This document shows, one piece after another, positions 2,137 to 59,899 of a stretch of DNA of 64,000 nt (within the stretch, counting starts at the first letter, position 1; the number at the start of each line of letters is the position of its first letter). The position numbers were made by a program, and so were the translations under genes. This DNA comes from Lingula anatina. Taxonomy: Eukaryota; Animalia; Brachiopoda. The DNA is taken from contig CM120649.1 in the NCBI GenBank assembly GCA_051362555.1, positions 7,254,001-7,318,000 on the forward strand. Reading direction: 5' to 3'. Under the pieces are notes generated by a model that saw only the letters and a list, made by a program, of their open reading frames with translations, was not told the DNA's origin and did not search any database.

Positions 2137-2799
2137 GAATAAATAAGCAAGACTTAGAATTTATTTCCACAAAGTCCGGTTTATTCCTGGTTGAGAGCTG
2201 GGACCTCCAGTCAGCTTGTTCAGTTGTCTGGTGTGGCCACGTCCAGTCTTTCTCTCTCAGAGAATACATACAAATTATATAGCCTATTTGAACAAAGAAC
2301 AATTAACAATGAACTAAATTACAGGTAGGAGGATGACTTATGATTAAATTATAATTAAAGAGCATGGTCGGAGACGTCTGGCTATACTAACAGAGAGACC
2401 ACTGTCTGACCATCTCCTTTGAAGTTAAATGATACATCTGACCCATTAATTTTATAATAATACATGTACAGTTGTGATACTTCTTTTAATAAATAAGCCA
2501 ACACAGAAAGTGAACTAGAGACTTTCTACAGCTCAAACCACCTCTGAATCTTTATTCCATACAGTTGGATTTTTTTAAACAATGTTTATTCAAAGGAAAT
2601 GGAGGCAAAGCGCTAAAAGCATAAGATGCTCTCCATGTAGAACAAAATTAAAAAAGTAATTAAATAAAAATACTGTTGGATGAGGTGATTCAGAGAGGTA
2701 GATTGTAATTAATGAAAACTTAACTTTGTATTTTAATTTTGTCAGGGTGAATATAGGTGGTGTATTCATTAAAGTATGCAAGCACTTTCTTACATATTT

Positions 2800-7859: not shown

Positions 7860-8604
7860 GTTGTAATCAATTCAAAGACAGCAAAGCTGTGTACTATGTA
7901 TACTGCATGTATTTTGTAATTCTTGTCCCTGGTGCTTCCACTTTATCGTTGTATGTTCAAGACGGAGTTGATATTAAAGAATCACAATGATGGAATTAAT
8001 GTTCCAGTGCACAAGACAAGCGTACATGGATCTATTCCAACATGTGGTGATTTTATCCGTTTTATATACTGTGATTTAGGAAGCGTGTTCACTTTTTAAC
8101 TGACATGGCTTTATACAAACCAAACATTTCACGAAAATCATTATTTAGTAAGTAATAGTGAGAACTTTGGTTACGCTTTTACCTTTGTAACAAAAACCAA
8201 TGAGACAAATGCAATCCTTGCAACACGCTGACCAAACATTTCCGCAAGCTGATAAAGCCATTTAAGGTTAAGCTAATGGCAATGAAGCTGAAACTGGTAT
8301 TTACTTTGCACTCGAGAAAACGCCAATATCGTTGAAAAGTCTCAACGTTTGTATTTCTGTGCGACGTTAAAGGCGCATTTTAATCGGGGTTTTAGCAGAA
8401 TTTATTTACAGGAATACCACTTACACAATCTACATGTTTCACAAATTCAATAATCGTGTTCTATACCAGTTCTATGAAAATAGCAAATTCGACCGTAATG
8501 AAATAAGCATTTATTATAATACTTGTATTTATAACCCCTTATTTTATAACCCCTTATTTTAGTCTATTTTAAAGACAAAATGCCCCCGCTTTATGATCCA
8601 GAAT

Positions 8605-10943: not shown

Positions 10944-13900
10944 TCAGAGAAGTCCTGGTATCCTGGAAATGAATTCATAATTATCTATAGTATATCATTT
11001 ATGATCTTTTTAATATATAAATATATCTACCCCAATTTCCATTCTTATTTTAAATACTTGCGTCAGAAGTTCGTTCAACACAACTGTTCAGTTAAGCAAT
11101 CGAATATGACTATAGCAAAGATCATTCAGTAACAAAATCATTCAGATATCGTTTATGTTTCTACAAAGGAATGCAAATGTCCCAAGTTCTGAAGTGTATG
11201 TATAGCCCCTTAAGTTCAATTTGTAAGACTGACTGTCACGCCGTGTGCGATGTTGTACTGTATTTTACCAATTTTGTGGTAGTTCTTCTTTATATACCAG
11301 TGGAAGAAGGCGACCAGTGCAATCAGGGCCTGCACAATGCCTATACTGCCCAGAGCCACCACCACCGTCCGCCGCTGCCCTGAAATGAAAGGAAGATTGG
11401 CGCAATTAAACGATATGGCAACACATATCTCTAGAGTCTATTTGAGTCTTATTGAATATTTGATATATATTTCATATCACTAATAGGCCATGGCAGTTAG
11501 TATAGACAACAATGTGCTACACTGTTCACGTACATAACAATAAAAACTGGCCTTGTTTGGCCGATTCTCGAGCAACCAATACACAGTGTTGCCCGTTTTC
11601 TTGGTATGAATGGGAATGTGAATGCTTGTAGTAATTTCGGATGGAGGAGACATAAAGACACTATTTTAATTATTTAAATAATATATGCACTTACTGAAAT
11701 TCTCATGCTTTCATTTAGATATGGCAAATGAATAGGGGAAGATTGACAATTCGTGGACAACTACGGACTATCCAGCACGGAGCGCCCGACTAGTCTCCAA
11801 ACAACCATGGCAGATAAATGGTCAGTGGCAGAAATATATGGGATGAATTCCTGCACCAGTCATACAAAGAACCGTGTTCTAAATCCCTTACTAACCTCTT
11901 CTTTCCGCCTCCTCGCACGACACTTCCTCGTTATTGTATGGGCACACTAGAGACAAAAAAATAAATGGCTCTTTTCAAAATGATTAATTTACCGTCGATG
12001 TTTTGTTTTAAATATCATTTCGTATTCGGTTAAGTTAAAAAACGCCCAATGTGTCATTTATATGGCATCCATTTAGATTGACCTACGCGATAAAACGAAT
12101 TGCTGGCCCTGCTTTGCAATAATTATACATGAACTATATGCTGTTCAGCGTACCTTCGTTGTAAACAAGATGAAAACCTTGGCCCGTTAGGTTTCCACTG
12201 AAGAAACTCATGGCTACCTTATTTGGCTTGGCGTGGTAGTCACTTGGAAGGGAAACTGGAAAACAAAGTTGTCAACGACTTTTTAAATTGGACGCTTGAA
12301 TAAGGAAAGATATCTGGTAAAGGGTCAAACAAGTATATTGACAGGGGCTCCGATGGACTTACTACCGGTCTGCAATTTTTGTTCATACAAAAAATAATAA
12401 TAAATAATAAAAATGAAAAAACAGAATCAAGCGTTCAACACATCAAAAAATGAAGAAGTGAATGGGTGTAAAAGAAATTGCATCAAAATAAAGGAAAGGC
12501 CGCACAGTTTCAGATATAAATTCTATAGGTGCTCTATAATTTGCTTACTTATTCATGCACTTCGTACGATGATTAAAATAGCTACTTGTAGGTCGACTTA
12601 TCACCTGACGATTCACCACTAGAGTAAGTAGCAGAGTCCAGGCCACTACTTCCCATTAGAAATATAGATCCTTTGGACAAGTTTATTGTCTAAAGAAATC
12701 AATTAGTTATTACTTTTGCAATAAGGGTTCTCGAAATCGGTTATATCAATATATCTAATATAATAATTGCAAAGGTTTCACATCGCTTACAAACATAATT
12801 AATAATATTATTTCTAAACCAGTTAGAAGTATTGGACGAATTAGAAAGAAAATGACTCTCTTCTTCAATACGGTAAATTTTAAAGCAAACTGCAATATTT
12901 TGAATTCAATCATCCTTTGTTGCATTATTTTTTCCGCCTGAAAGCTGAACATACATGTACTGGTAGAGCCTGGCATAAACATCATGAACTTAATATAAAA
13001 GTATAACCTTATACCTTCCATTTCCGATAATGTTTTTGTTGTAAAAGTGGCAAATGGTGAATTACTGCTTTGGTTCAGAGACTTTGTAACATCGATCTGT
13101 AGGATATAAAAAGTAAGCTAAGTTAGGGATTGTGTGCATATTATAATAATCTATGCCAATTTAAAGCATAGACCTTATATGTCGAGCATCATAATACATC
13201 ATCCAGCTAACACTTATTCACAGAACAAACTTGTCTTTCAACTTATTACCTCCGCGAAGGAGGTTATGTTTTCACCCCTGTTTGTCTGGCTGTTTGTTTG
13301 TTTGTCATCAACATAACTCAAAAATTTATGGACAGATTTTGATCAAATTTTCAGGGTAGGTCGGAAATGGGTTAACTTAGAAGTGATTACTTTTTGGTGG
13401 TGATCCGGATCAATAATCAATCAATAATCAATAATAATAAAAAATCGCTGCCTTGGTGGAGGTCTGCGCTCTCGGAGTGCTTTTCTAGTTTTCATTTGAA
13501 TTTTGGTTAAAAACAAGCAAAGGTGAAAAACGACATTTTTCTTGATTATGTTTTACCTTCAAAGCAGTTTTATCTGTGATATCCAGTGTGGAGGCACCAG
13601 TGGGGATGGAAGCATTGTCTTTGTAATCGCCGAGCATATAACCTCGCCCGTCTCTTATCTGAAGCGAAAAGCGAGCTGATTTACCTACACTTTCCTCTGT
13701 TTCTGCATCCACAGAATGTAATATACCGTGTATGCTGTGTACAATATATACTAATGCATATACCGGCTTTTTTTGCCATATTTTTATCCGTGAGATTTTG
13801 TCAATATCGACAGATAGCAAAATTATCACACGCATCAAAATATTAAGTAATTTAATTGTAATTAACGGGAAGATTGACAGAAATGATATTTCACTTCGAT

Positions 13901-20297: not shown

Positions 20298-21575
20298 TAT
20301 ATCACAGAGTGTTCATACCCTTTATGATCCACGAAACTCCATTAAATGAAGTTATTTGTCTAGTATAATTTGACAGTGATACTTGTTCCAGATCTGACCG
20401 CCGTCCATGGTTTAAGAGCTGTCCACTCTGTGTGATAGCAAAGCTTACAGAACACTGCATTCAATATTATTCAGGTAAGAAAAAACAGCATTTTATACTT
20501 TCTAAAGCCTAATTCTGTTCACAGTGTGTATATCTGTGCTTTACTCTTTGAAGATTATGCAGTCTTTTCGACATTCAGCGATAAGAGCCAGATTAGTCAA
20601 TTATTTGCCGTAATCTAGAGTAATTCATAAAGTAAACGACTGAAATGTTATACTTCACAACAGGGACGAATATCTAAATCAGTGACTTTATTAACACGAA
20701 CTTTCCGAAATCTTTGACAAAATACCAGTAATCCCCACCAACCTTTATCCCGCGGACTGGGAATCGAGCGGTTCTGAATGATGATAGCAACTTTCTTATA
20801 AAAGATTTTACGCTTGTAGCATTCACCCACATACACAGAATACCCTTGCAGAAAAAAAGATCGATACATTCGAGTTCTCAGTTTTTTCTCAGTTTTTTTC
20901 CAATCGCCACGATTGGAATTCGCCTGTCTCCATCTCCATTACGTGAGCCAACCCAAATATATCACTCAAATTACGGTTTATAGATCGAAATTCTGTTAAC
21001 GAATTCAGAGATGGTATATGTTGGTGATTAATGGTACATTTGGACCGAGCGTGAGTGGAGTGTGGATTAATTCCCTGTAATACATATAAACCACCTCTAC
21101 TAGTTTCTTATACGACTCAAATTAAGTCTACATACCACGGAATAAATAAACTGAATTCGATCTTCCATTAGAGAGCGTTAAACTGTCAAAAATTAACTGT
21201 AAATGCATGTTTAAGTGAAAAGATTGCAATGGCGGCCAGAAAAATAAATATTTTGCTATGTAAAGGCGTGGCTCATATTTGTGCATTGAAAGTCAATGAA
21301 AACGCATCATTTATTTATCACGAGACAGGAAAAAACATGATTTTGTAACAGCTGATCACAAAATCACTGAAGCGAAAATTTTAAACATCCAAGTGACTTG
21401 AACTCTCTTATGACCAAACAAATGCATTTGTACTCGTTTGTTTGGTTGGAATTGATTCTCGGTAAAAAAGTACAAGGAAGTTTTCTGATGAGTTTTCATT
21501 GACTGTCAGTATATATATTTTGGTCTTTCGTTTTAGAAACAACAGGTTCAGGTTGTAAGAACATCGCATTGAATC

Positions 21576-22763
21576 ATGCACTGGCCAGGTACAGAAGAAC
21601 TATCCAACCGGTCACTTCTTGAAACATTTGCAACAACACCAGGCGGCACTCCTTGGAATGATTCGTTCAACAGTTCCAACATTCCAAACGTTGATTTGAC
21701 AGGCCATTTGGAAGTAGCTATCGAAGGTATTTTGAATTTAATGAGTACCGCAAACAACATTAGTGGAACTGTTTTTGAAACGAATGAGACAGATTTTCAA
21801 ACTGTTAATATAAACCCAGAAAATGATCCTTGCTTAAATATTGGCTGCACACCTATTATTGTCACCAACTTTGTCGTGGCTGCTCTGTGTGCTGTTGCCA
21901 ATCTTGTGGTCATGGCGGCGTTTCTCAAGTGCCCTCGGTTGCGTACACAGACCAACATTATCATATTCAGTCTGTCTGTGGCTGACCTCCTTGTGGCGTG
22001 TGTACACTTCCCTTTCAACACCGTGGGGCTGCATCTAATCCACATCGTCCCCGCTTTAGAGCCAATGAAATACAATATCTATTTCTGTTTCATTAGAGTA
22101 TCTGTAGGGTCTTTTCTCACCACCACGGGGATCATACATATGGTCTTTATAGCCGTGGAAAGATACTTCAAAATATGCCAGTCGCAGAGGTATGACTCCG
22201 TTTTGTCAAAAAGAAAGGTTATACTAGGTTGCATTGCCATCTACGTCTTTAGGTTTATTCTGGTCAGCTTAAATTGGATATGGGTGGTTTGGTCTCCCGG
22301 GGATGACTGCATAATAGAAACTCTCCTGCACCCTGTGGTGTTTCGTGTGAATTCTTACCAGATCCTTATTGCATTGTTCATATCGGGTGGTTGTTATATA
22401 GCAATTTTCCGCCATGTGCACCGTATCGGAAAAAACATGTCAAAGCACTCATCGACCCCGAGACAGTCGGGTGAAAAATCAAGAGAAAGCCAAACAAAAC
22501 GGGAAATCCAACTATTTAAAGTAATTTTCAGAACAGAATGCGTGTATATCTTATGTTATTGTCCGTACCCACTCATGCTGTGGATATCTGGTAACAATAA
22601 TAATAATGGTGCCACTTGGCTTGCAACAACGACCTATATATGCAAGAAGATGTTTTGGTTAGGGTGCGGCCTTAATCCGATAGTATATGGATTCTTAAAC
22701 AACAATTATAGGGCGGCAATTGGGAGCCTTTTTGGACGTAAAATATCTAACGGTCCTATGTAG
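21576..22763 (+). CDS. Class A (rhodopsin-like) GPCR, 395 aa, single coding exon
   Basis: N-terminus with N-glycosylation sequons; TM1 ANLVV, TM2 SLSVADLL, ERY motif, TM6 CYCPY, TM7 NPIVY; TTTTAG acceptor at about 21536 suggests a 5' UTR intron. Confidence 0.93.
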   Translation: MHWPGTEELSNRSLLETFATTPGGTPWNDSFNSSNIPNVDLTGHLEVAIEGILNLMSTANNISGTVFETNETDFQTVNINPENDPCLNIGCTPIIVTNFVVAALCAVANLVVMAAFLKCPRLRTQTNIIIFSLSVADLLVACVHFPFNTVGLHLIHIVPALEPMKYNIYFCFIRVSVGSFLTTTGIIHMVFIAVERYFKICQSQRYDSVLSKRKVILGCIAIYVFRFILVSLNWIWVVWSPGDDCIIETLLHPVVFRVNSYQILIALFISGGCYIAIFRHVHRIGKNMSKHSSTPRQSGEKSRESQTKREIQLFKVIFRTECVYILCYCPYPLMLWISGNNNNNGATWLATTTYICKKMFWLGCGLNPIVYGFLNNNYRAAIGSLFGRKISNGPM

Positions 22764-27088: not shown

Positions 27089-27862
27089 TCAATAACCGAC
27101 ACTGCATAACATTAATAATAAAACAACACAAACAACATATAAAGTGCATATGGACGCAGTTAGCGCACGAGTCGAAAACAAAGAACGGGAATAAGTTTTA
27201 AAGACCCAATTTTTTACTAAAAATAATCTGTCAGATAAATTATCTTTCACATAGCTATCTTTAGCCGTTTCCAATCTCCACCTTCCATGTCTTTTAAATA
27301 ACCTGTCTGGAACACCAGCTCTTGCGGCAGCAGTAGCACCACCCGCTCTCAAACTATGTAAACCAAATTGTTTTATATCTTTAACAAGAGGAGAAAAAGA
27401 GGAAATAAATAATTCTCTCATTCTAGTATATGAAATAGGCTTATCGTCATCTCTAAAACGATAACCATTGAAGTGCTTGCTGACAGATCTGAAAAGATAC
27501 AAATCCGAATGCTCACGATTCGCATAAGAGAACAATCGCTCTGAATTTTTAACAGGACAAAGCTTTGAATAAGTTCTAGCAATAACCATATGAGAACCAT
27601 CTCTATAGATGTTCATTTTACTCTTTTCAATAAAAATCGACATGTATGAATCATAAAACGAAACATCGCTAATCCTTAAATTTAACAGCTCTGAAACTCT
27701 AAGAAAGCCTGCATAAGAAAGCAAGCAAGCACATATAGTACGTTGAGAATACACATTCCCTTTTTCAAAATTTGCATCAAACATTTTTTCCAAAATATCT
27801 GGAGATATGGGCTCCTTTTTGCAAACTGGCTGTGACTTGCGCCTCTTAATACCTTCCAACAC
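27089..27862 (-). CDS. Tyrosine recombinase catalytic domain of the DIRS element (N-terminal part frameshifted, C-terminus runs into flank)
   Basis: Catalytic set present: LRVSE, K, HSLR, HGRW, Y. Confidence 0.8.
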   Translation of the reverse strand: MLEGIKRRKSQPVCKKEPISPDILEKMFDANFEKGNVYSQRTICACLLSYAGFLRVSELLNLRISDVSFYDSYMSIFIEKSKMNIYRDGSHMVIARTYSKLCPVKNSERLFSYANREHSDLYLFRSVSKHFNGYRFRDDDKPISYTRMRELFISSFSPLVKDIKQFGLHSLRAGGATAAARAGVPDRLFKRHGRWRLETAKDSYVKDNLSDRLFLVKNWVFKTYSRSLFSTRALTASICTLYVVCVVLLLMLCSVGY

Positions 27863-30440
27863 ATTTTTACTAAACTAGAGTCTGTAGGAGACTCTGCGCT
27901 TATAATGGCATGAGCCCATTTAAGCCTGTAAAAAGCCTGATAAACAGGACTAGAAGAATTGGACTGTTCTGCTAAGCACTACAAGTACAAAGCAACATAA
28001 AAACCTTTTGCCGGAAAATTCTCTTGAATGCCGTTCTTCTTCGCCCATAATTTCTATCGCATGAAAGCTGAATGATAACCCTTCACTGTGTTCGATGACC
28101 GACTCAGATAAAAATCCAGCAACCAATGGCATTTTACCAGCCAACTCGTCAGGAAGCTCAGAAATGTCATCCTTATAAGCCTGCAAAAACAAATGTAGAA
28201 AACAAAAAACAATTAGTAATTTAAAATCCCTTCCATTTTATTAAGAAAAATCAAATCTAACTGCCAGCATTTTAAACGGCAAATCCACTCTACCAAACAA
28301 GCCTCCTGCTTTTCCAGGAACATAAGTTTTTTCTCTCGGTAACTCTACTTATGCTACAGCTTCCTTTATAAATCACCCGCCTTTAGATAATAAAGGCCAA
28401 AAACTAGCTGAGTGCCAGCAAGGTAAAATCACCGTGCCGCTAGCCTTGCATTGTCTTAAATACAATATAACTCTAGATAATACACACACCGGGGGCACAA
28501 ACCAACCAATCACACCACCCCAATGAACAGTAAATGCATCAGTGCCCACTGCACCTGGAGTCCAATATCTAGAATAAAAAACTGGCAATTTATTGTAATG
28601 ATCGGAGTAAAAAAAGTCAATTTCATGCGGCCCCCAGACTGATTCTAAATGATCGAAAATACTATCTGCCACCGCCCAATCATCATAGTCTACTAATCTA
28701 TTATTCCACATTCCATGCGAAATCTCCAAAGTGTTTTCCACCATATATCCACGATAACCAGTTCCACTAGCGTCACTGTAAATAATGGAATGCACAGCTT
28801 GATCAATTATAAAATCCCTTACAGAAATCTTGCATACAATATATTCCCAAAATTCCATTTGCTTCATACTGTTTCTGCTCAAACAATTTGTTCATTCCAA
28901 AATTTAGCTTTAGAAATATCAAAAACCATATTGCCAGTAACAAAAGACGTAGAAATGATCTGACCTACTAAACTAGCAACTAAACGCACATGAACGCTGC
29001 CTTCTCTTCTAAACAGAGAACGGATATCTGTCTTAGTCTGACGAATTTAAAGAAGTCTGTAATCAGGAATGCATATAGTGCCTTTCTCTAAATTCAAATT
29101 ATACCCTAAAAATAAAATCTCAGTACTAGGAGACCACATTGATTTTTTAACTTTAGGAACAAACCCGCTGTTGATAAGATCTTGCTTAATTTCTAAAGCA
29201 ATATTCTTACATTCTCTGTACTGCGAATGACAACCAAAACCATCATCTAAATACATGACCCCTTTTTCGCCCTATCCTCGCCACTTTTTAAGCAGCGGCC
29301 TGGTCACTTTAGTAAAAATGTAGCATGCCGAACTAAAACAAAAATCTGTCTTAAATAAAACATTGCAGTACGAATATCTTCTAATCTTACTGAAGATTTC
29401 CAAAGATGTTTATTAACATGCCGCAAATCTAACATTAAACGCTTTTTACCGCTTCTGCTAATGGTCACTGTAAGCGGGTTAACTACAACAGGTATATCTG
29501 AGCACTCACTAATAAGGCCTCTGACCAACAAATCTTGTATTGCCTGCTCAACAAATGCACTATGCAAAATAGCATTGTTATCCAAATGAACTGGTGCGGG
29601 TATAGAGAAAAAAGGAAGCTTGTATCCATTTTCTAAAAGATCAAGAATAAACTCATATCTGCCAATACTTAAAAAAAAAACGCTAATTTACTTCTTAGCC
29701 TGCCTTTAACACCAATATGTACATTGCCTTGCTCGTACTCAAAATAATCGTCAGTAAAATTGATTTATCATATTTCACATCACAACAATACTTATCTTTG
29801 ACAAAATCATGGGCAATTGGCTTTTGAGAATCCTGGTGCACTTCCTGGTGCTTTAGTGAAGGGACAATCTCTCCTCCAATGGCCAAAGGGCCCACACTCA
29901 AAACACGACCCGCTCCTTCCTTGTCCGAAGGGGCTGACAGCGGAAGAGGTGGCTGCTGGCATGAAAGAACCTGGATTGACTGCTTCCAAGAAAAAGAGGC
30001 TGGGCGCAGTAAACAGGATCAGTACTACTAACGTTAGAATTGCTGGAGCCATGACCTCCCTTCGAAATAGGTTTGTTCAATTTACGCTTTTTCAATGCCT
30101 TGCTTTCCGCTCTGTTGATTTTCTTTTCATCCCTAGAGTCACTGTTCTTTAACTTATCAGAAATAGTAAAGACAACTTCTTTAGCGTAATCAGGCTTGCT
30201 GTTGACTACTACCCAAAATACCTGCATCAATAGCTCTTCAAACTCAGTGTTGAAATCAAACTGAATGCGGTTGCCTTCTTGGCGCCATTTGGTGGAAACC
30301 TCGGTCTTAATCTTTTTTAACTTTGTCAGAATAACCATGTACTTTGCTCTTTAAGCTTTCCAACTCAGAAGTTACTTGAGCCTTAAGGTCTTTTAACGAT
30401 TCCGCCTGCGACTGCACAGTATTTGTTTTAGGGAAACGGC
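27089..30440 (-). mobile_element. Degenerate DIRS-order tyrosine-recombinase retrotransposon (gag - RT - RNase H - methyltransferase-like - YR)
   Basis: Zinc knuckle CFECGPFGHWRRDC; RT VVVNPLTV..KKRLMLDLRHVNK and YLDDG; RNase H YSDASGTG; MT-like DDW...WGPHEIDFF...FYSRYW.PG..GTDAF; YR FLRVSEL/HSLRAGGA/HGRW/SYVK. Multiple frameshifts and deletions; termini not seen. Confidence 0.93.
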
Positions 30441-41981: not shown

Positions 41982-42511
41982 TTAGTAACCTGAAATAGAA
42001 ATGCACTACAACACATCTGTGCTATGGAACTTCACTGTTCAGCAATTTTGATTGGCAGTCAGTGTGTTTACATTGTATAACTACTGTACTGATTAATCTG
42101 GATACATCCTACCCATGTGATACAAAAATGTACGGGAAACAGATGCCCATTAAATCTCATGAAATGGTATATCTAAACCTTTCCTATACAAAAACACTGG
42201 GAAAGATTTCCGCAAAGTCAAATTTGTAACACTGTGATACATTTACCACCAAACAAAAAGGTCTGGATTATTTCAATGGAACGATATACTTGTACATGTG
42301 TTTGCATCTCCATATTTATATGACGTGAAGAAGATATGGAACACTCACCTCCGCCATACTTGCGGTAATAATAAGGCCAGTAGAGATATCGATATCCATA
42401 TGGGCGATATCCATAGTTAAGGCGATCTCCATGGATGGAATTGACAACGAAAACACATGCCGCTAGGGTGAACAAAAAGACCAGGAGCAGCACCGTGGTT
42501 GAAGTCTTCAT
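41982..42511 (-). CDS. Secreted Tyr/Gly/Arg-rich peptide, 56 aa, 2 exons (42511-42349, 41989-41982)
   Basis: Signal peptide MKTSTTVLLLVFLFTLAACVFVVNS; GTGAGT donor and TTTCAG acceptor give ...DRLNYGYRPYGYRYLYWPYYYRKYGGGY*; 11 Tyr in the last 28 residues. Confidence 0.8.
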
Positions 42512-43443
42512 ATTTATAGGGTGGGCAAATAGTAAGCTATAAGATGTGACCGTTATTGTCTGTACTCATATACCCGAATAATAAAATGCCAGTGAGGTCA
42601 CTTCCTACGGAGTGTTAAGGAAGTGTCTTGTTGTTGATGTAGTTAAGTGAAAAAATGTGCATGATTGTCCGTACTTTTGGGCGATTTCACATATTAAAAT
42701 TAGCCCTGAGTTTTAGACCAAGATTGTGCGGTCTCCTTCAAGATAAATCCGCAAGTAAAGAAGGTATTGGTCTGTTTTTGGTATTGACTGGCCTTTTTGA
42801 TTAATATCAGTTTGCTTTTAACATGTCTCTTGACCATCAGTTAAACATTTGTGCCACTTTCAGTTCAAAGGCAGATTAAACAGTATAAACGGCATGCTTC
42901 TAAATTTATGGATGCATTTGAAAAATAAATAAATAAATAAATAAAATAAAAATAAAAAAATAACAAAAAATCTCCTTAATCGTACAGATGTGAATTCATG
43001 TCTTCACATTATTAAGATCAACGGTTTATTTGTTTTACACCGTCTCATGCACTAGGGTCATTTTTTTGTCATAAGAATACAAGTTCAAATAAAGCTTACA
43101 TATAGAGTTTTAAGTCGGAGAAATTGTTTTGAGTAACACGAAGGAGATCAAAACAAAATCCACTAGTGTTTTTTTTTTTGTGGTTAATAAAAAAGTGCAA
43201 GATAAAACCACCATGCAGACACCTTTGTATTAAAAGCACATTTCCCAAACTATTTCCCAAAATACACCATTGAGTCAACTTAGTTTAAGTACAGTGCCAC
43301 GCCGTAACCGACAATCCATCATGTATATTTCTCCATAAATATAATGAAATAATGGTGTTGATGATGGTCAAACTGACCACACTTACCATCAATTTCAAAG
43401 ACCGTGTAGAGATGTAGTTTTAATTACAGCCTCTTGTGGTACA

Positions 43444-43450
43444 TATATAA
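43444..43450 (+). promoter_or_regulatory. Candidate TATA box of Trp-rich gene copy 1
   Basis: TATATAA about 95 bp upstream of the ATG; conserved in the same context in copy 2 (about 48419-48425). Confidence 0.6.
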
Positions 43451-43541
43451 GCTGTGTACTTTTCTAACGGTACCGTTAATTCGGACAGAACGCCAGCGAT
43501 TTTTGATTCTTTATAAATCCACGAAGAAGAATAAGGACAAG

Positions 43542-45762
43542 ATGTTTATCAAGGTAGGAATATTTATCAGTATTTTTTGGCATAAACATAATGCTAATAA
43601 ATACATTAGATTGAAACGTGTCTATTAAGATCAACTATAATTGCTATTAAGCGCCCGAGCTTTCCGCTTGTGTGCTTTTTTCAGGTACATAAAGATAACA
43701 AATAAGCAAATTAACATCTAAGATACCTTACATATAAGTAAAATTTACAGTCTCAAAAGTGCATGATTTCATTATGAAAATAACATAATAATGAAAGAGT
43801 ATAATATTCGTTGAGGAAATCATTGTCTATATTGAGTCTGTTTTTTTAAAGTGTCTAATATATTTTTTTGTGAATTTCTGATGGCAATCTATTTTTCTAT
43901 TCTCAGCTTATGTGTCCTTTTAAAATGTAACTGTACTGTAATGTATGTAGTGTTGAATGTTGTCCCACCGGCAAGGAGTTCCTTTTCTTTATGGTGCTGT
44001 GGTGGCGCCTGATGCTTACGTTCGTACGTGCACATCATCACCCTAGGGACCAAGACACTAAACCCGAACGGGAGGTCACGCGCAACCACAAGATTTGCTT
44101 TATAATCTGTACACAATACAAACACTTTGATTCGTTCTCTATACTTTTCTCTTCTGCAGGAGGTTTTCCTTGCCGTCGTCTGCCTTTCGTTTTCAAATGG
44201 CCAACTTGATCATTCGGCCTATCCCGACGGACTCATATATTCTGAAATGAAAGATGGCGTCACCTTCGAAACCGGGTTCTCCACCAAAGCCGATTTTTCG
44301 CCAGACAGGGTGGCTTACCCAGAGTAAGTTACAATATAACCTACGTAACTCAGTATGTCAGAATTGTATGCAGTCGACAAAGGCTGTGTCTATAGTTAGT
44401 AGTACATTTCAGTTGGGTTTTTAATATTTCCCAAAATAACCGAAATTAAACAGCCAGTTAATCAATTTAATTATTAAGAAAATTAGTAATTGGTTAACTC
44501 ATTTACTAATACGATTAATTCGTAGATAATTGGAATAGATTAAACACCAGTTACATCGCATTATATCATATTTTAAATAAGGGCAAACCATCGACCCATG
44601 CAGTGTTTACTAGTAAATATCAATTTAATTCCTTACTAATTTGAATATCCATTCATCTATCGTATAATTGTTTAAGGAAAAAGATCGCCGAAGTCTGTGG
44701 ACTTTCTGCGCCTATAGCGAGAAGTGTGGGAGAAGGGTCCGTCCCCGCGGACTTGCAAGACCTTTCAGTAGCTGCCTTTAGAGCAAAAACCTCCCTTCTT
44801 CCTGTCGGGTAAGGCACATTAATCTGTTGTAGCACCTACGAGTACCACATACTGGTAGCTAGGATGAATATATTCAGATAGGGGTATATTCAGTTGAGGG
44901 GGTTATGAACCAAGTAAAATCATGTAACTTAGAATAATCGACGTTTTCTCAAAGTATGATTCCAAAAGTAATATGAAAGCCTCTCAAACGATGTGCGTGA
45001 TGTGTAACATCCGTTGTTGACATTTCAAACAAAAAATATAGGATTAGTTCATCGATTCCACATACTTTTCTGAAGCGCATGTGATGGATAGGTTATGGTA
45101 AAAAGTTTTACTAATTATGCACATGTACATAATATATACAAAATTCACCCAAATGCATGTATGATTTAACTGAGAAAGGACCACCGCTTTTAAAAGACAT
45201 TTCACGTTTCGTTTTCAGCGTGACAGAGTGTCCAGAGTACTACTTCCGGATCCGGCCATATTGGGTACGATGGAGAAATACGTGGTTTCCTGTGATTCGT
45301 TGTGGAATGGGCTGGTGGACGTGGATGTACTGTCCGTAAGTATATATATATATTGAAGTGTAACATAAATCTAGATATATATACGTATATATATATATAC
45401 GTATTATAAGAAATGGGCCGATATACAGATATACATTGACATTATGAGTTAGAATTAAAACTTGAAAGCGCTGACGGGACAAAACTCTGTATGATAATAA
45501 TAGCAATACAAAGTATGAAATATCCCCACTTTCTCTTATATATTTTTGTCCTCATTCGTGTACCCATTGGTGTTTCAGTCGAGTTAGTTGCCACCACACT
45601 TACTACTACAATAGAACGTTGAACTTCAAGGTTTGTGCCAGGTGCACCACTGAGTGGGGCTGGAGACAGGTCTATATTTGGACCTGGTACAGACCGATGT
45701 GGGTCTGGATCCGGGTGCCAACCGGATGTTGCTGCGGTCTCGCGAGAGGTATCCTGTGCTAG
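43542..45762 (+). CDS. Secreted Trp/Cys-rich protein, probable Spaetzle-like cystine knot, copy 1, 202 aa; exons 43542-43553, 44160-44323, 44677-44808, 45219-45335, 45579-45762
   Basis: All introns GT-AG and phase-consistent. MFIKEVFLAVVCLSFSNG signal; acidic pro-region; C-domain ECPEYYFRIRPYWVRWRNTWFPVIRCGMGWWTWMYCPRVSCHHTYYYNRTLNFKVCARCTTEWGWRQVYIWTWYRPMWVWIRVPTGCCCGLARGILC*. Structure is conserved in the paralog. The fold call is inference. Confidence 0.88.
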
Positions 45763-46678
45763 AGTCCAACGCGGATCTTTACTCGGTCACACATACACTT
45801 TATCTTTAAATTGAAAAATGTGTAACTCTATAAAAGTTTGTGGCCTCTATTGCAGTGCAAAATTATCATCTAGGCACAACTTTTTTTCGGTTCTGCCAAT
45901 AGTTTGTGTACACCAGAAAACAACAAAAATGTGGTTTTACAACTATGCTAAAGTAGGTAAATGAGCCCAATACGTGTAACTGGTGTTCAGCAGTCTTACA
46001 AGTGTATTTTATTGTATTAGGTAAGGTAACAGTTATACGGGATAAGACATGCTGCTTGGTATTTACACATCATGTTATGATATTCATAATTATACTTACT
46101 AGTATTGTATAAATGTATGTATACCCCTCGTCGTAAGTTAGTAGGCCTGCAAATACCAAACCATATGCATATTAAGTGTTTAGTAATCAATATATTTATT
46201 ACAAATGGAATAATGTTTTGAGGAGGCACTTTCAACATAGTATTTCACAGCACGTTGGAGACACAATGAGAGAGATGACTTGTGGCAATATGTTTAAATG
46301 ATGAACTGCCTTCGTCCAGTACATGTGAAAGAGTGCATTTATAACAGATGATCGGCGGACTAACTTATCCGCCGACTAAATATGCCCATTCGTTAAAAAG
46401 CGATGCAGCTAATCCCCTGATGTTTTCCCCGCTTCACACGCGCCGTCGCTGCAGGGGCCGAGATTTAATCCGCTTAAAATGGGACGTATGTATTTATGAA
46501 GACATTTGATATCATAAAAATAAAACAAAAAAACAAACAAACGATAGTAATAATAATACAAGTAGCAACAAAAAATCTCCTTTATCGTTACGATGTGAAT
46601 TCATGTCTTCACATTATAAAGGTCAGGGGATTTGTTTCACACTGTCTCATATACTATTACCAGTATGCCACAGGGTAA

Positions 46679-46904
46679 CACCACATTTCCATAGATTTTT
46701 AGATCGATCTATCCCTGTGGGGAGTCTCACTAGATTACTGTCAGCTTGGCCGGCTTAAGCGTCTGTCCCGCCTACTAAAAGCTGTAAGGGGGTAATTAAC
46801 TATGGTGCCCGCTCGGCTGACTGCAATTTAGCGTGAACCCCCAGGGAGTTAGGTCGATCTAAATCTTAATCTTTAGATCGATCTAAATCTCTGGGAAAGC
46901 ACCC
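46679..46904. mobile_element. Foldback MITE, copy 2 (Tourist/Harbinger-like, TAA flanks)
   Basis: 226 bp, TAA on both sides, nearly identical inverted copy at 50986-51211; absent from the paralogous site near 43060. Confidence 0.88.
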
Positions 46905-48518
46905 TAAGAAATAAGTTTAAATGAAGCTTACATTCTTTTTAAGGCCAAAGAAATTGTTTTGAATAACACGAAGAAATGAAGCCCAGACCACGTTATGCAG
47001 TAATATTCTTGTGTATGTTTAAATAAAAGAGTCTTAAATAATACCACCAGACATCCTTTTATTAAAAGCACCTTCCAGTCCGGAGTCAACCGAGTTAAAG
47101 TGCTGTGTTACGCCGTAAACGACACTCCATTATGTATGTTCCTACATAAATGTTGATATAATGAGAGGGTGGTATTGATGATGGTCGAATTGACCGCAAC
47201 TACCGTTAATTTCAAAGACCGTGCATGTGTTCATTTGAAAACCACAAAGCTGAATCAAAAATAAAGAACTTTAGTTTATGTAAACAACACCATGTCTAGT
47301 CTAGCTATAATGCACGACCTGCACGTTTATCTTTTTAACGAGGAAACCGTCCAGTTTAAAAAGCAATCGATATGTTTAAATATCTTTTTATTTTAAGCAA
47401 ATATATGAATCAGCGCGGTATAAACATAATACAAAACAGTCCACAGGCGTGTCATTCAGTTCAGCCGATTGCACTCAGAGAGAGTCCCTGCAGAGTTGGA
47501 GCGATCTACTTAGACCGATGGTGTCAATGGGAATGAACCCTAAGTGTCATCCTTGGCTAGGGTTTTATTTATGAAAGATGTGTCAGTTTTCTGAAACGAA
47601 TGCACTCATTTACGCATGTAAGCATGAAACTGTATATTTTCCCCAGTAAGCACCGGTGCATAAAACACAGTATAATATTGTACATTAGCATAAAGCCCCT
47701 GTGGCCGGTACTTGAGGCATCCATACAGTTGCAAATAGCTGAAGATTTACCTGGCCCATATGAAACGAATTAACAGTATACATATATACCGGATAGAAAC
47801 CAAAATTCATGTTTGGCAGACTGTGCGCTTATCTACTTACGTAATTAAAACGATCGTACTTTGTGGCATTGGAAAAAGTGTCAATAAGCATTACTGATAT
47901 GTTCTTTAAGGTATTTTTAATTAAGGAAAAATTATGGCCAGTTACTTCAGTGCAAATTGCCTAAGTTACGAAGCTCAACATTCAAGTAATGTATGTAAAA
48001 TCCATAAATCGGAGGTGAGAGTTTTTTTAAAGAGGCTGTGAAAAGTGAAACATCTTTCAGTCCTGGCAAGTACAAGTGTTTTTTGTTTGGAAGCCAGTTC
48101 AAACTTGCATTGGGACCAACCTGGGAGGAGACGGTTAAAGTGTAAGTAAACCTATGCAAAGCCTTACTCCAGACCGGACCCAGAGTCTAATTTCTTGTCC
48201 GAATTCACCCCGGAAATAACCTTGAACTTTGGTGGCTCTTGAAAATTAAATTTAAATCATTGACAAACTGCACATTATCAAGTGTGTCTGGAGCATAAAT
48301 ATCTTGATTCTTTTATTATCTTAATATTTTCTGTCAACATCTAAAATAAACTAGGCATTTGTGCCTGCCTATAAATCTTGACCGTCTGAGATGTAGTTTT
48401 AATTACATCCTCTTGTGATATATAAACTGTGTATTTTTCTAACAGTACCATCGATTCGTGCAGCAGCGCCAGACATCATTGATTCTTTTGAAATCCACGA
48501 AGTAAAAATTACACCACG

Positions 48519-51500
48519 ATGATTGTTAAGGTAAGAATATTGAGAGTTTATTGTATTTCCTTTTTTATTATCGTTATCTGATTCGCAGCAAGCATCTTTG
48601 ACACAAAGCTCAGTTTTTTTTTTGAAAAATGACACTAGTTTTAGGTTGCAAGAATCGTTTTTGAACAATGACAATCGGAACTGTTCGGGAAAAAAACTAG
48701 AAAAGCACTCCGAGAGCGCAGACCTCCGCCAAGGCAGCGATTTTTGATTATTATTGATTATTGATTGATTATTGATCCGGATCACCACCAAAAGCTAATC
48801 ATCTCTTCCTTGGTCCACTTCTGACAGTTCCTGGAAATGTCATCAAAGACTGTCCATAACTTTCTGAGTTATGTTGATGACAAACAAACAGACAGACAGA
48901 CGGACAAACAGGGGTGAAAACATTACCTCCTTGGCGGAGGTAAAAAACAATTAACCCCATAGGGACTATTTAGTGCTGACGTAAAAACCTTCCCTGGGGC
49001 CAGTTTATGTGCATATGTACCTTTGGAAAGTGGGATTATTTAGATTTTGGTCCTAGATTAGTTTGCAAACATCACTTACACAAATTATATAATTTTAGAA
49101 AGCCAATAATTCAGGCTTCGTGAATATGATTTTATAAATGTAAAGTCATTTAAATGATTAGACTTATGTAGTTTTGAAAATTGAATTCTCTGAATTTGAA
49201 AGCTGGAGAGGAAAATCAAAAACTGCATGTTACAGTGCACAAATAGTTTATAATTTCCTTATATATCTGCTTGAAAATCTGTCATAGTAATGTTACATAA
49301 GTTAACTTTGAACTCAGAAAAAATCAGCATGATCCTAGTTTTAGTTTTTTTAGTTATTTGGAATTTATCATAATTTTTAGGTGGTGAGAAACCACTATTT
49401 TCTTTTTAGCTTTTGAAACATAGAATCACCTTTTTTTCACTCCACTTACCTTTAAAAATTCCCTAAAATAGTTAAAATGAGAAAAAAACTCGCTCAATGT
49501 GCACCATAGTCTTATTTCATAAATCGCTGCTTAAAGGGAACAGTATGCCAATATTCCAAGATATGCATATATGTGGTTCTGGGCCTTTGGGGTAAGTGAG
49601 AAATGAACCGCATGTATGCGGTGACTGTCTCTTTGGGGTTAATGCATATTTCAATTTACCTCTCAAATTGCAAAGTACACATGTACCTTACAGCCAGTGC
49701 ACAATGTATATACAATAATTGAAAGGTTTTTTTTTTTCTTCTCAAAGGGGATATTCTTTGTGGCCGTCTGCCTTTCGTTTTCAAATGGCCAGCTTGATAA
49801 TGCTGCGTATCCTGACGAATTCATATATACAGAAATGAAAGATGGCGTCACCTTCGAAGCCGGTTTCTCCACAAAAGCGGATGTTTCACCAGACAGCGTG
49901 GCATATCCGGTGTAAGTTATAACGAAACAAAATAAATCAATCTTGTACGCAGTCGACAAAGGCTGTTCCTATATATTCCAGTTGGGTTTTTAACCAAGCA
50001 TTTTTGCTATTTCCCAAAATGAATAAATAAAAACTAAACCACAACTGCCAAACAATTAATTTCATAATCGCGTAATTGGGTAGTTGGTTAACTCATTAAT
50101 TAAAAGGTTAATACGTAGATGAATAGAAATGAATTCAAAATCAATAATATCATGTTTTATAATATCTGCAATTGAGAGCGAAACGTCGACCCTTCTTTGT
50201 AGGTATCTATATCCATCCTTTTATCAATTTACATATTCATCTATTTTATTATTCATCAAGGAAAGAAATTGCCGAGGTATGTGCACTTTATGTGCCAGCA
50301 GAGAAAATTGAGGTAGAAGAGGCTCCCGCTCCCGCTGACTTGCAAGACCTTTCAGAAGCTGCCTTCAACGAAAAAGTTGCCTCTATTCTTCCTATCGGGT
50401 AAGGTGCATTTACCTGTCGTAGCGCCAGCGAGTATCATATACATACATACATTGGTAGGGTGGCTATTCTCAGTTAAGGTCATGAACCAAGTAAAAGCAT
50501 TTAACTTCTAGTAATCGTCGACCACAAGTAAATTAGAAAAAAGAATGTTAAACATCTAAAATGAAATGCACGGTCTGTAATTGATACCTCGTCAGGCAAG
50601 AATTACACTCATTGTACATGTGTATGTACATGTAGAAATAGTTGACCAATTTTGCATTCAATTTTGAAGTGCTATCCCCTTGGAAGTAAACAGGCTATGG
50701 TCATTTATCAAAATTTTAATGCTCCAACAAGATCAAGTCATCCAAATACATGTCTGATATCCTTGAGAAAAGACTATCGCTTGTAATACAGGCATATTTC
50801 ACGTTTCGTTTTCAGCGTGACAGAGTGTCCAGAGTACTACTTCCGGATCCTGCCATATTGGGTACGATGGCAAAATAAATGGTTTCCTGTGATTCGTTGT
50901 GGAATGGGCTGGTGGACGTGGATGTACTGTCCGTAAGTATATATATTGAGGATAATGTTATTACTCCATAAGGAGAAGCGTGTTAGGGTGCTTTCCCAGA
51001 GATTTAGATCGATCTAAAGATTAAGTTTTAGATCGACCTAACTCCCTGGGGGTTCAGGCTAAATTGCAGTCAGCCGAGCGGACACCATAGTTAATTACCC
51101 CCTTACAGCTTTTAGTAGGCGGGACAGACGCTTAAGCCGGCCAAGCTGACAGTAATCTATTGAAACTCCCCACAGGGATAGATCTATCTAAAAATCTATG
51201 GAAATGGGGTGTAAGTAGAGAGTATGCTTGAGATACATATTAATGCAGGAGATTATTAATAATTATATACAATGTACATTGAAATTATGAGTAAAAATTA
51301 AAACTTGAAAACGCTGACGGTACGAATCTCTATATAGTAATAATAGTAATGGATGGTCTCCTCTTTGAGTATGAAATAGTGCCTATCGCATCTGATATGG
51401 CCCTCTTTTCCTCGGTTTCTTATGCATTTTTGTCCTAATTCGTATTCTTTTTTGGTGTTTCAGTCCATTCAGCTGTTATCAAACCTTCAACTACAGTAAA

Positions 51501-51647
51501 ACGTTGAACTTCAAGGTTTGTGCCAGGTGCACCACGGAGTGGGGCTGGAGGCAGGTCTATATTTGGACCTGGTACAAGCCGATGTGGGTCTGGATCCGTG
51601 TGCCCACCGGATGTTGCTGCGGTCTCGCGTGGGGTTTCCTGTGTTAG
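48519..51647 (+). CDS. Secreted Trp/Cys-rich protein, copy 2, 204 aa; exons 48519-48530, 49748-49911, 50261-50398, 50816-50932, 51464-51647
   Basis: Same exon structure and phases as copy 1 (exon 3 is 6 nt longer); MIVKGIFFVAVCLSFSNG signal; ends WVWIRVPTGCCCGLAWGFLC*; AATAAA at 51764. Confidence 0.88.
48695..48943. mobile_element. HINE-like non-autonomous element in intron 1 of copy 2
   Basis: AACTAGAAAAGCACTCCGAGAGCGCAGACCTCCGCCAAGG ... (ACAG)n ... ACCTCCTTGGCGGAGGTAA; related to 13246-13490. Confidence 0.82.
48955..49638. mobile_element. piggyBac-like non-autonomous element
   Basis: TTAA on both flanks; TIR CCCCATAGGGAC / GTCTCTTTGGGG (10 of 12 match); absent from intron 1 of copy 1. Confidence 0.7.
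50986..51211. mobile_element. Foldback MITE, copy 3, in intron 4 of copy 2
   Basis: 226 bp, TTA/TAA flanks, near-identical reverse complement of 46679-46904. Confidence 0.88.
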
Positions 51648-52667
51648 AGATCAATGCTGAATTTTGCGGATCATTACTTTGCAGATACCATGAAAGACCC
51701 GCCATCCAAACACGTGTATTTTGAATTTTCTGCTGTGTTTGTGTTTTTTATTTTTATTTTTCAAATAAAAATGCGTTACCTTAAAGTTTTAACATTAAAT
51801 TGAATTAACTGTTTTTGTTTAATTGTTGTCAAAATAAGAAACAGTTTCTTGAATATTACACAATTGACGTGTTCAAATTATTCACAGGTGACAATGAGTA
51901 ACATGATGTGCATGATTTGAAAATGAAGAATAAATATTTGCAAAGTTATTATGATAAATGTTGGTTTTTTAGACAACTACTTTTTTAATTCATAAACAAA
52001 AAAATATATTAAATCCCTTTTTATGTATGACGATTAACTCTTTTCTGTAAAAAAAATTAATTAAAAATCTTATAGCATTAATTTAGACATTTTTCGTCAT
52101 AAAAACGGAGGAAGCTTTTGTGGGAAAGCTGTTTTTCATTTAAGTAACACAATGCGAAAATGTAACTTGTCGTCATAGTTTCCATCTATTTTATAAATAT
52201 CCGAATGATTTTAAGACTATGTTGTAAAATTTCTAAATATTATTTTTAACAATTTATACTTTATTGTGTTTAATTCAATCAAGTATTAGGAAAGTGTACA
52301 TTTTGCTCAACCCCAAAACATTACATCTGTCATGTTAAAATTGTCTGATCGTATTATTATCATCATAAATACCAAACCATAAATAATAAAATACACCAAA
52401 TGCATACTGATTCGGAGCTATCAGTAGATCAGCCAAAATTTAAGGGTATATTTTGGTGAAAAAAATTCAGGATTTGTAATTCTTCTGCATGCTTAGTAGA
52501 TGTAAGACTGCAAACAAAGTCATGAGTTACCCATGAGGTAAGGGCCACCTTTTTGCTTCCCAGAATAGTTTCTTGAATTTGGATGACGTTATGTATAATG
52601 ATACGCCTCCGCATCGTTACTCCCTTTCTTCAGTTTTTGAATGATTATTCGGAGAAGTTCTCACTTT

Positions 52668-57681: not shown

Positions 57682-58899
57682 TCATTTGGTGGACATAGTT
57701 TGCACTCCTGGCTTTTGCCCTTCTATCTTTGCATTTCTGTTTCGTCCTGCCCCAGATTGCCTTTGTTTTTTCGGCTTTTGGTAGCAACATAACGATCTCA
57801 GAGTGTCTCTGAACTGTTTTCCAAAAAGACCGTAAATGAAGAAATTAATGCATGAACTCAGTGTAGAGAACAAGACTATAACTGGATATACAAAAGTCAG
57901 GCCTGGTCCTTCACCTATGCGATTGTTAAAAACGAGCCCAAAGAGAGCAGATAGGGTCATGGTTAAAGAGGCAGCCAAAGTGGTAATGGCGATGATCAAG
58001 GTCATCTTTATCAAAGTACGATGAACACCCAACTTGTGCATGGCAATCATAGTTGGATTCTTAGCAAGAGCCCTCATGTAGTGGGCCATTTTCACATTCA
58101 AGATAAAGACAATTATGAAAGGAACCAAGAATTGCACAAAAACGAAAGAAAAAAATATATACAATCTGTGGTATTCCGAAGCCGGAGTCATGGCGGCGAG
58201 ACAAAAAACCGGGGAGGTTGTGTTCAAGGGACAATTTCGCTCGGGCATTGACCCAAGGAAATATCGTGGGACATCGTTGAGAAAGGCAAAAATCACGACG
58301 CCGCCAACTCTTAACGCCCAAACTTTAATACTTGCCGTTGCTCCGCTTTGAAGGGCGTTCTCAGAGCAAATGTGCAGATAACGGTCCGCCGTTATGAGCA
58401 CTACTAACCAGGGTGGGATCAAGACAAGGGAATATTTCAACCCATAAAGAAGCCGGAAGTGTTTCATCCGGAAGAAAAAGAAGTTTTCGAACCACCCAGT
58501 ATACGGGTACATGGCCGGGACGGTGAAGTTGAAGATCACCGTTAAAATATGGATGTTATCGGCCACTGCCAAGCATATCAACAGGAAGACCGTCGGGGTC
58601 CGTTTCTCGAAACGTGAAAATACAGCCATCGAAAGACTATTGAGAATAAAGCCAACCACACCAACTAGAGAAATCCCAATTCCACTAAAAACGAAATAAT
58701 ACAGATTGATGAAAGCCAAATCAGGAATATCCTCTTGCTTTTCGTCTTCTTCAAGAAAAGAGCTTCCGTTTACGGACATCTCAGTCGCATTCATGGTTTT
58801 AAAAAACTCAAAGAAAATTGCAGAACAGAGGAAAGTGTTGCTAAGCCGTTCACAAGCTGGAGCAGTCTCAGTGCATGTCTTACTAAGTGAAACAAACAT
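57682..58899 (-). CDS. Class A GPCR, FMRFamide/peptide-receptor-like expansion family, single coding exon (start may be the second Met, MNATEMS)
   Basis: GISLVGVVGFILNSLS, LICLAVAD, DRY, NDVPRYF, QFLVPF, SCINFFIY..FGKQFR. Confidence 0.92.
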   Translation of the reverse strand: MFVSLSKTCTETAPACERLSNTFLCSAIFFEFFKTMNATEMSVNGSSFLEEDEKQEDIPDLAFINLYYFVFSGIGISLVGVVGFILNSLSMAVFSRFEKRTPTVFLLICLAVADNIHILTVIFNFTVPAMYPYTGWFENFFFFRMKHFRLLYGLKYSLVLIPPWLVVLITADRYLHICSENALQSGATASIKVWALRVGGVVIFAFLNDVPRYFLGSMPERNCPLNTTSPVFCLAAMTPASEYHRLYIFFSFVFVQFLVPFIIVFILNVKMAHYMRALAKNPTMIAMHKLGVHRTLIKMTLIIAITTLAASLTMTLSALFGLVFNNRIGEGPGLTFVYPVIVLFSTLSSCINFFIYGLFGKQFRDTLRSLCCYQKPKKQRQSGAGRNRNAKIEGQKPGVQTMSTK

Positions 58900-59899
58900 T
58901 TGTACCTGGTTGATGACTGACGTGTGACGTCTTACGCTTCAACCTGACCATTGGGGTTTGGTGAAATAGAAATCCGTCGGTAACCATTGACAACTTATTT
59001 TGATGAAAGTACGCCATACATGTTTTGCAAACTATACAACACTACACCTACAGACACGATGCTGTCCCAGATAATTTTCCCCACATGTTTGTTTTAATTT
59101 AGGTTTTCAGCAATTTTCTATTCTCATAGAATTGGCATGACAAATTATGAAAAATCATTTCCAAATAATGTAAAGTATTTATATTATGATTCTGCGAAAC
59201 CCTTCTTAGGTAGCAATGAACTTTTGGCTTGAACAATTACACTAGATCAACGGAAATTTCACTCTGTAATCGACGTGCTGTGACACTCATCTCATCTCAG
59301 TCTTCATGGTCTAGATTGATCCAGAAAGATGACTTAATTCTGCTGTAACTCAAGAGTACTTTGTAAGGCGTTTGATAAGGCGTATTTTCTCAGCAGGCTT
59401 CTTATTCAAAATGAAACTTCTGGGGCACACGTAATTGCCAAAATTTCCCACTTCTTCAATTACTGTTATTACTATCTATAGACACGCGTCGAAAACGCCA
59501 TGTGCCATCCACTCCAAAAAGTGTGCTTTTAATCACCATACATTATGCTCTAGCCGAAATAACTCTGTCGGCTATTTTATACACATTAAGTATGAGACCA
59601 ACCATGTTATTATTGAATTGTCTGTTTTTAACAGATCTTACAGATCTTCTGCCATGAAGATAATTCATTACGACTTGTCATATCTGTGGCATGCTTTGAC
59701 CATTTTAACAGTTCATGCCCCCCCACCTCTGCTTGCTCACATTTCCCCCCGTGAATCATACCCCCAGTGATCATGACCCCCCATGGGAACAGTCAGTTAA
59801 AATATGATCCATGATACGCCTTCTTCGATCACGTCAGTTTTTGAATGCTAACAAGAAATCAATTTTGGTTGGGAATGCGGCCTTTAACAAATTCTCACT

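Follow-up and report, generated by a model that had tools for sequence, protein, structure and literature searches.

A tandem gene pair for tryptophan-rich proteins with a predicted Spätzle-like cystine knot in the brachiopod Lingula anatina, and a possible structural role for their family

Proteins of the Spätzle family (PF16077; Drosophila Spätzle C-106, PDB 4bv4) are built from a signal peptide, a pro-region and, at the C-terminus, a cystine-knot domain of about 100 amino acids (aa), an architecture set out in sections of PMC9427763, and horseshoe-crab coagulogen carries a knot like that of Spätzle and nerve growth factor (NGF) in a non-signalling role within a clotting cascade, according to passages of PMC2586362. 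The searches of lophotrochozoans described in parts of PMC2772990 and PMC9835746 recovered no Spätzle. Here we analyze a stretch of 64,000 nucleotides (nt) from the brachiopod Lingula anatina (assembly GCA_051362555.1, contig CM120649.1, positions 7,254,001 to 7,318,000 of the forward strand), hereafter the window, in which two intact tandem genes on the + strand, A (43542-45762) and B (48519-51647), encode predicted secreted pro-proteins of this same layout whose C-terminal domain is loaded with Trp. At a probability of about 0.4, we read this predicted knot domain as a self-assembling extracellular structural protein that would lie outside the mineral shell. The gene models are already on record without a name or function; what is new is an unnamed family of eight loci with a predicted fold.

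The two proteins (202 aa for A and 204 aa for B) have a hydrophobic N-terminus (9-residue hydropathy peak of 2.9), taken as a signal peptide by prediction from hydropathy and not from a dedicated predictor, and a pro-region with an isoelectric point (pI) of 4.1-4.7. A preliminary description of this locus had called the pro-region acidic, which is clear in B (net charge -13) and only mild in A (-4). That description also proposed a C-terminal domain of about 100 aa with 10 Cys and 12-13 Trp, and we found it to be 99 aa long, with 10 Cys in each protein and with 12 Trp in A and 13 in B (12.5-13.5% Trp); the motifs quoted there, the C-P start and the terminal VPxxCxC are all present, the end reading VPTGCCC. 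The two domains have all 10 Cys and 12 of the Trp in common, and their net charges are +10 and +7. Relative to four long open reading frames (ORFs) of the window, with 29 Trp in 1953 residues, the Trp excess has a binomial P of 3e-8 for A and 3e-9 for B.

When 1.84 billion representative sequences were searched with phmmer, eight proteins were returned at E<=0.001, seven of them Lingula anatina proteins labeled ‘uncharacterized’ and one bacterial. The bacterial protein (P0013), a GH25 lysozyme with GW repeats matching over 33 residues (E 2e-5), was dropped as spurious. The phmmer members and two loci matching the window pair form a family of eight RefSeq loci in total, and the pair may be represented by two of these as alleles. 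The preliminary description had recognized no named gene, in agreement with the labels of all relatives, and we found no description of the family in the open-access literature. A profile whose only sources were four distant paralogues gave the window domains 67 and 61 bits, compared with no more than 1.5 bits in 200 shuffles of each domain and less than -20 for reversed sequences; because the real domains score so far above these controls, composition does not account for the family homology. Lingula was the only source of the family in the searches made, in collections from which other brachiopods may be missing. On this evidence the family is a lineage-restricted expansion, and its paralogues are likely clustered, as three loci lie on contigs of one length and two on contigs of another. 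No third copy was found in the window beyond A and B. Two word-based homologue searches, with 1 and 36 candidates, each confirmed only P0005, the RefSeq counterpart of gene B, and one that used the family profile confirmed 3 of 2932; they say little on taxonomic range because known members were missed. In metagenome scans, none of the pattern matches (109 in one scan and 245 in the other) was confirmed.

Across the family, each domain holds 11-21 Trp (10.5-21.2%), with 0-3 Trp in the remainder of each protein. Two members, P0008 and P0009 (LOC106177158 and LOC106177174), are more extreme than the window pair, with 20.4 and 21.2% Trp in the domain, and four others have 10.5-13%. Cys residues occur at domain positions 4, 38, 43/45, 58, 61, 89, 91 and 99 in all eight domains, the third knot Cys shifting by two columns, while an odd, spare Cys at position 90, within a CCC motif, is found in 7 of 8. 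Five Trp (22, 65, 67, 73 and 82) occur without exception in the eight domains. In the family tree, the window pair (95/93) and P0008 with P0009 (99/98) are set apart from four members with an extra Cys.

The C-terminal domain is very probably a cystine knot of the Spätzle/neurotrophin type, as proposed in the preliminary description, and three lines of evidence, independent in part, support this prediction: full-length matches to PF16077 that stay below its threshold, searches of the ESM Atlas, and family-wide conservation of the Cys residues. Among eight aligned family members, three matched PF16077 (E 7.7e-5, 0.0043 and 0.01), and the isoform P0017 did so at E 1e-4. The ESM Atlas feature search ranked Spätzle first with 0.92 (202 of 256 features), or 0.88 for exon 5 alone. 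When compared with Atlas models of Spätzle and NGF, the Atlas model of P0005 aligned with template modelling (TM) scores of 0.64-0.70 over 86-91 residues, and the structure rows include a mollusc cluster of 297 aa (TM 0.64). These structural rows are flagged as under the bar for naming, the Pfam scan gave no Spätzle or other domain match for the window exons or P0005, and all paralogue matches, the best at 23.7 bits, fall under the PF16077 gathering cut-off of 27 bits, which is what one might see if Cys and Trp composition misled the searches and the domain had some other disulfide-rich beta fold. We consider this very unlikely, given that the paralogue matches run from position 3-4 to 94-95 of a profile of length 96, that the Cys of P0014 align in register with those of solved Drosophila Spätzle C-106 (4bv4_L, E 0.6, over a 66-residue aligned stretch), that the window domains so far outscore their shuffles (60-67 versus at most 1.5 bits), and that the Atlas models align over 86-91 residues at TM 0.64-0.70.

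The other structural comparisons contribute little. Single-sequence AlphaFold2 models were too poor to test the fold, with a mean predicted local distance difference test score (pLDDT) of 37.5 for whole P0005 and 40.9 for the domain, and Foldseek found no match at E<=0.001 with them, so that the AlphaFold and Foldseek check suggested in the preliminary description was carried out but is uninformative. We give little weight to the Foldseek ranking for the low-confidence domain model, in which NGF came first (E 1.2, TM 0.14) and 13 of the 49 rows listed belonged to NGF, Gremlin-2/GDF5, Norrin or VEGF-B. For the same kind of model, VIA-align had no knot protein among its listed hits (best Z 4.2) and is uninformative, and a homodimer prediction score of 0.01 for the domain is evidence neither way. 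Sequence searches of the PDB gave nothing significant, and NGF (PF00243) was not matched in any Pfam scan of the pair or the paralogues.

Six Cys in the Spätzle order occur across the family, and the predicted knot residues are C4, C38, C43, C58 or C61, C89 and C91 of the domain. From the family alignment, Cys II is placed at 38 and Cys III at 43. For Cys IV there are two candidates: it would be 58 by the Spätzle alignment, or 61 by the spacing of NGF, in which the IV-V gap is 27 residues and equals the C61-C89 gap of the Lingula domain. We rejected C28 as knot Cys II, as it is found in the window pair only. The remaining two invariant Cys are predicted to form a further bond, and two finger hairpins to be beta ribbons.

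In the last hairpin of the domain, alternate residues place Trp, Tyr, Gln or Arg on one side (65, 67, 69, 71, 73 and 75; 80, 82 and 84) and mostly Val, Ile, Thr or Met on the opposite side. If these segments are beta strands, both faces would be hydrophobic, and four invariant Trp (65, 67, 73 and 82) are predicted to lie on one of them. Residues 73-82 of both domains (45679-45708, +, in gene A) read W-x-W-x4-W-x-W, a spacing identical to that of the designed tryptophan zippers trpzip1 and trpzip2 as given in a table of PMC2427033; the assembly of such zippers is treated in parts of PMC10593748. Composition-keeping shuffles of the two domains hold this pattern in 1.2-1.7% of cases (1205 and 1652 of 100000). 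A true zipper is a tentative reading, because the spacing was noticed after the fact, because W75 of the pair is not conserved in the family, and because the turn, at 77-78 in the low-confidence model, would by the family alignment fall near 74-76, about two residues earlier.

We favor a structural protein because the Trp load is confined almost wholly to the domain, because five Trp are invariant, four of them on the same predicted hairpin face with an aliphatic face opposite, because 7 of 8 domains have an odd Cys to spare in their CCC motif, because the family is a lineage-restricted expansion, and because coagulogen offers, by analogy, a precedent for a Spätzle-like knot in clotting. Drosophila Spätzle C-106 has no Trp in its aligned 66-residue stretch. 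In such a structural protein, the acidic or disordered pro-region would hold the cationic domain in solution up to its cleavage, at the furin-type site in four paralogues and by another protease, or not at all, in the window pair. Released domains would stack through Trp/Arg ladders, possibly on chitin, with both hairpin faces sticky (Trp on one, Val/Ile/Thr/Met on the other), and the stacks would be locked by spare Cys, namely C90 and, in the window pair, C28. Candidate sites are the periostracum, the chaetae, the pedicle cuticle, and egg or larval coats; the assembly, binding and localization sketched here are inferred. The broader proposal that lingulid brachiopods recast the Spätzle/neurotrophin cytokine fold as building proteins of an unmineralized material, through Trp/Arg ladders, a zipper-like hairpin and Cys locks, seems to us less likely than not. 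About 1 kb upstream of gene A and head to head with it lies an exon (42349-42511, -) of a small secreted Tyr/Gly/Arg-rich protein, which ends at a GT donor and had no Pfam match and no reads in four runs; this neighbor may count as circumstantial support for a structural role.

Both gene models, with exons assembled by coordinate, have five exons and no internal stop, with GT-AG boundaries at 8 of 8 introns and the same intron phases (0, 2, 2, 2). In gene A, exon 1 (43542-43553) holds the ATG and first four codons before a GT donor and is paralogous to exon 1 of B, exon 2 (44160-44323) encodes the remainder of the predicted signal peptide and the start of the pro-region, and exon 3 (44677-44808) continues the pro-region without a furin-type site. 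The first part of the Trp-rich domain, with predicted knot Cys I and II, is encoded by exon 4 (45219-45335), and predicted knot Cys III-VI, the Trp-faced hairpin and the stop by exon 5 (45579-45762). Gene B is similarly divided, with exon 1 (48519-48530) placed by exon assembly and RefSeq P0005, exon 2 (49748-49911) encoding the predicted signal peptide and pro-region, exon 3 (50261-50398) the acidic pro-region, exon 4 (50816-50932; 95.7% nt identity to exon 4 of A) the first part of the Trp-rich domain, and exon 5 (51464-51647) predicted knot Cys III-VI and the stop, all exons of both genes being on the + strand. An AATAAA follows gene B at 51764, whereas neither AATAAA nor ATTAAA was found within 640 nt 3' of the gene A stop.

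A database search with the last exon of A returned a single protein, RefSeq XP_013394456 (P0005) of Lingula anatina, named ‘uncharacterized’, whose cluster contains two further named isoforms (3 of 4 members examined). Model B is 96.6% identical to this protein, with all four junctions spanned, and model A is 88% identical to XP_013407107 (P0006), which tracks gene A through A-type exons 2-4 and then has a B-type last exon. Possible origins of this join are a merged annotation, an allele altered by conversion, and genuine splicing of A onto the last exon of B. Exon 2 of A has a tandem acceptor with a second AG 3 nt downstream, and P0006 is one residue short at that junction. Judged by their likeness to the pair, the RefSeq loci LOC106161923 and LOC106171343 are the same genes or alleles, and RefSeq gives them no name, domain or function. 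The open frames, intron boundaries, shared phases and RefSeq matches thus bear out a tandem pair of intact, spliced 5-exon genes as first described, but the genes are not ‘hidden’, given that RefSeq models of them exist.

For RNA evidence, 6 of 9 raw-read runs of the species were compared, using 6-30% of each run, with runs X3 and X9 uninformative. Four reads of run X2 (two pairs, 90-95% alike) lie over exon 3 of B and continue at 50398 into the letters of exon 4; because they are only 90-95% alike, they appear to come from a close copy or allele. Four reads of run X1 are intronic. The exons of gene A had zero read depth in 4 of 4 runs, and no junction other than that between exons 3 and 4 of B was seen in the six runs. 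The junction check proposed in the preliminary description therefore succeeded for one junction, through four reads of a close copy, and for no other, and as the tissues of the runs are not stated, the reads confirm this junction and say little on expression level.

The copies arose by tandem duplication, because not only their exons but also upstream DNA and introns 2-4 align between unit A (42922-45775, +) and unit B (46522-51660), at 69-89%. The A and B proteins are 76% identical, and the ratio of nonsynonymous to synonymous substitution rates (dN/dS) between them takes a value of 0.27 for the domain and 0.37 for the N-terminal part, so that the pair is under purifying selection. Exon 4 with its flanks (45190-45345 and 50787-50942) is 93-96% alike between the copies, compared with 77-83% for exons 2-3, and dS is 0.24 in the domain versus 0.50 in the N-terminal part; both features may reflect gene conversion. 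A 230-nt repeat element lies inside intron 4 of B (50983-51212); an inverted copy (97%) sits at 46678-46907, related copies lie near 35522 and 62040, and the read cover of the element is heavy and derived from other genomic copies. Intron 1 of B contains a second repeat (48693-48906), with an inverted copy at 13279-13492 (86%), which is also covered by repeat-derived reads.

Selection and charge bear on a further explanation. Seven of 8 paralogous domains carry a net charge of +7 to +11 (pI 8.9-9.5), and this, with the acidic pro-region and the expansion of the family, is consistent with a secreted defense protein. In such a protein, the acidic pro-piece would mask a cationic beta-domain rich in Trp and Arg, whose targets in mucus or coelomic fluid would be the membranes or cell-wall glycans of microbes, to be bound or disrupted. 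Peptides that act on membranes are typically rich in Arg and Trp. However, the copies are under purifying and not diversifying selection (dN/dS 0.27), P0017 is near neutral (+1) yet keeps the Trp core, and both hairpin faces are hydrophobic and not cleanly amphipathic; a defense role, for which the case is drawn from charge and composition only, appears quite unlikely to us.

Several observations weigh against the structural role that we prefer. Structural proteins are usually abundant, and we found no reads over the gene A exons in 4 of 4 runs and four reads over B-like exons in a single run. A furin-type, cytokine-like site is kept in 4 of 6 other paralogues, and the assignment of hairpin faces comes from residue alternation and a low-confidence model only. 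The 54 Lingula rows of sheet S1 of PMC13425148 include none of the family accessions, and no family row appeared in the parts of its supplement covered by family accession prefixes and the tryptic stretch TTEWGW (one prefix occurs in four places, of which the two examined are histone rows). Similarly, 0 of 12 family proteins match, by length, pI and composition, the 17 rows compared from the later part of Table 25 and from Table 26 of PMC4595640. The rows compared from these two sources, in which no member was found, thus speak against the shell-matrix version of the biomaterial idea in the preliminary description. According to the 2026 study (passages of PMC13425148), the periostracum was stripped first, so its shell proteome does not cover that layer.

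The very low read counts instead fit a signal, and a brachiopod-specific radiation of Spätzle-like cytokines would consist of pro-proteins whose cleavage gives knot dimers that bind receptors of the Toll type (or the Trk/p75 type), the contacts with the receptor and within the dimer being made by the Trp surfaces. The order of signal, pro-region and C-terminal knot, the full-length Pfam matches, and an R-x-K-R furin-type site directly before the domain in P0008, P0010, P0011 and P0012 all point this way, but no such site was found before the domain in the window pair, P0009 or P0017. A table of PMC8609888 gives 25 Toll-like receptors for Lingula, Daphnia has tandem Spz7/8 expansions, and passages of PMC9427763 describe contact of insect Spätzle with its receptor by a Trp loop, although 11-21 Trp per domain far exceeds the need of one receptor loop. 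For the neurotrophin consensus [GSRE]-C-[KRL]-G-[LIVT]-[DE]-x3-[YW]-x-S-x-C, in the form quoted by PMC2772990, five of five proteins tested had a best match of 4 of the 9 informative positions, and this match lay outside the domain. On balance, we regard the cytokine radiation as unlikely.

Elsewhere in the window, broken ORFs at 27089-30350 (-) include a tyrosine recombinase (PF00589, E 9.5e-9) together with pieces that by eye look like reverse transcriptase, and are probably a decayed DIRS-type element. Two intronless ORFs at 21573-22763 (+) and 57682-58938 (-) encode rhodopsin-family G protein-coupled receptors. A single 704-aa ORF at 5757-7871 (-) has several hydrophobic segments and resembles a transient receptor potential (TRP) channel by eye, with no Pfam match, and a 435-aa ORF at 853-2160 (-) has no credible Pfam match.

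If the family is structural, a growth-factor fold would have been recast as a Trp-based biomaterial, giving a scaffold for the study of Trp-driven assembly. Known materials of marine invertebrates include ones based on 3,4-dihydroxyphenylalanine (DOPA), His or Gly, from which such a Trp chemistry would be distinct. If the proteins are ligands, they would be candidate Spätzle-like partners for the 25 Lingula Toll-like receptors, in a clade for which the parts of PMC2772990 and PMC9835746 cited above recovered no Spätzle.

Set beside the known systems, the Lingula family shares with Spätzle, besides the predicted overall architecture, the layout C-x4/6-C, then C, then P-x-G/S-C-x-C. The two differ in the 10.5-21% Trp of the Lingula domains, in PF16077 scores that stay below the cut-off, with no match for the window pair itself, in the extra Cys, which lies between V and VI (CCC) in the Lingula family and before V in Spätzle C-106, and in an extra invariant Cys pair of the Lingula family (the domain 58/61 region and 99). 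With the neurotrophins (NGF/BDNF; PF00243), the likeness consists of Atlas structure rows with TM 0.64-0.66 and furin-type sites in four Lingula paralogues, whereas the Lingula proteins have many more Cys and Trp and fit neither the consensus nor PF00243. Coagulogen, with no sequence match in the PDB searches, serves as an analogy for mode of action only, and to our knowledge Trp richness is not among its features. The Lingula family is thus Spätzle-like by predicted fold, is not a member of the Spätzle family by Pfam score, and carries an unusual Trp load.

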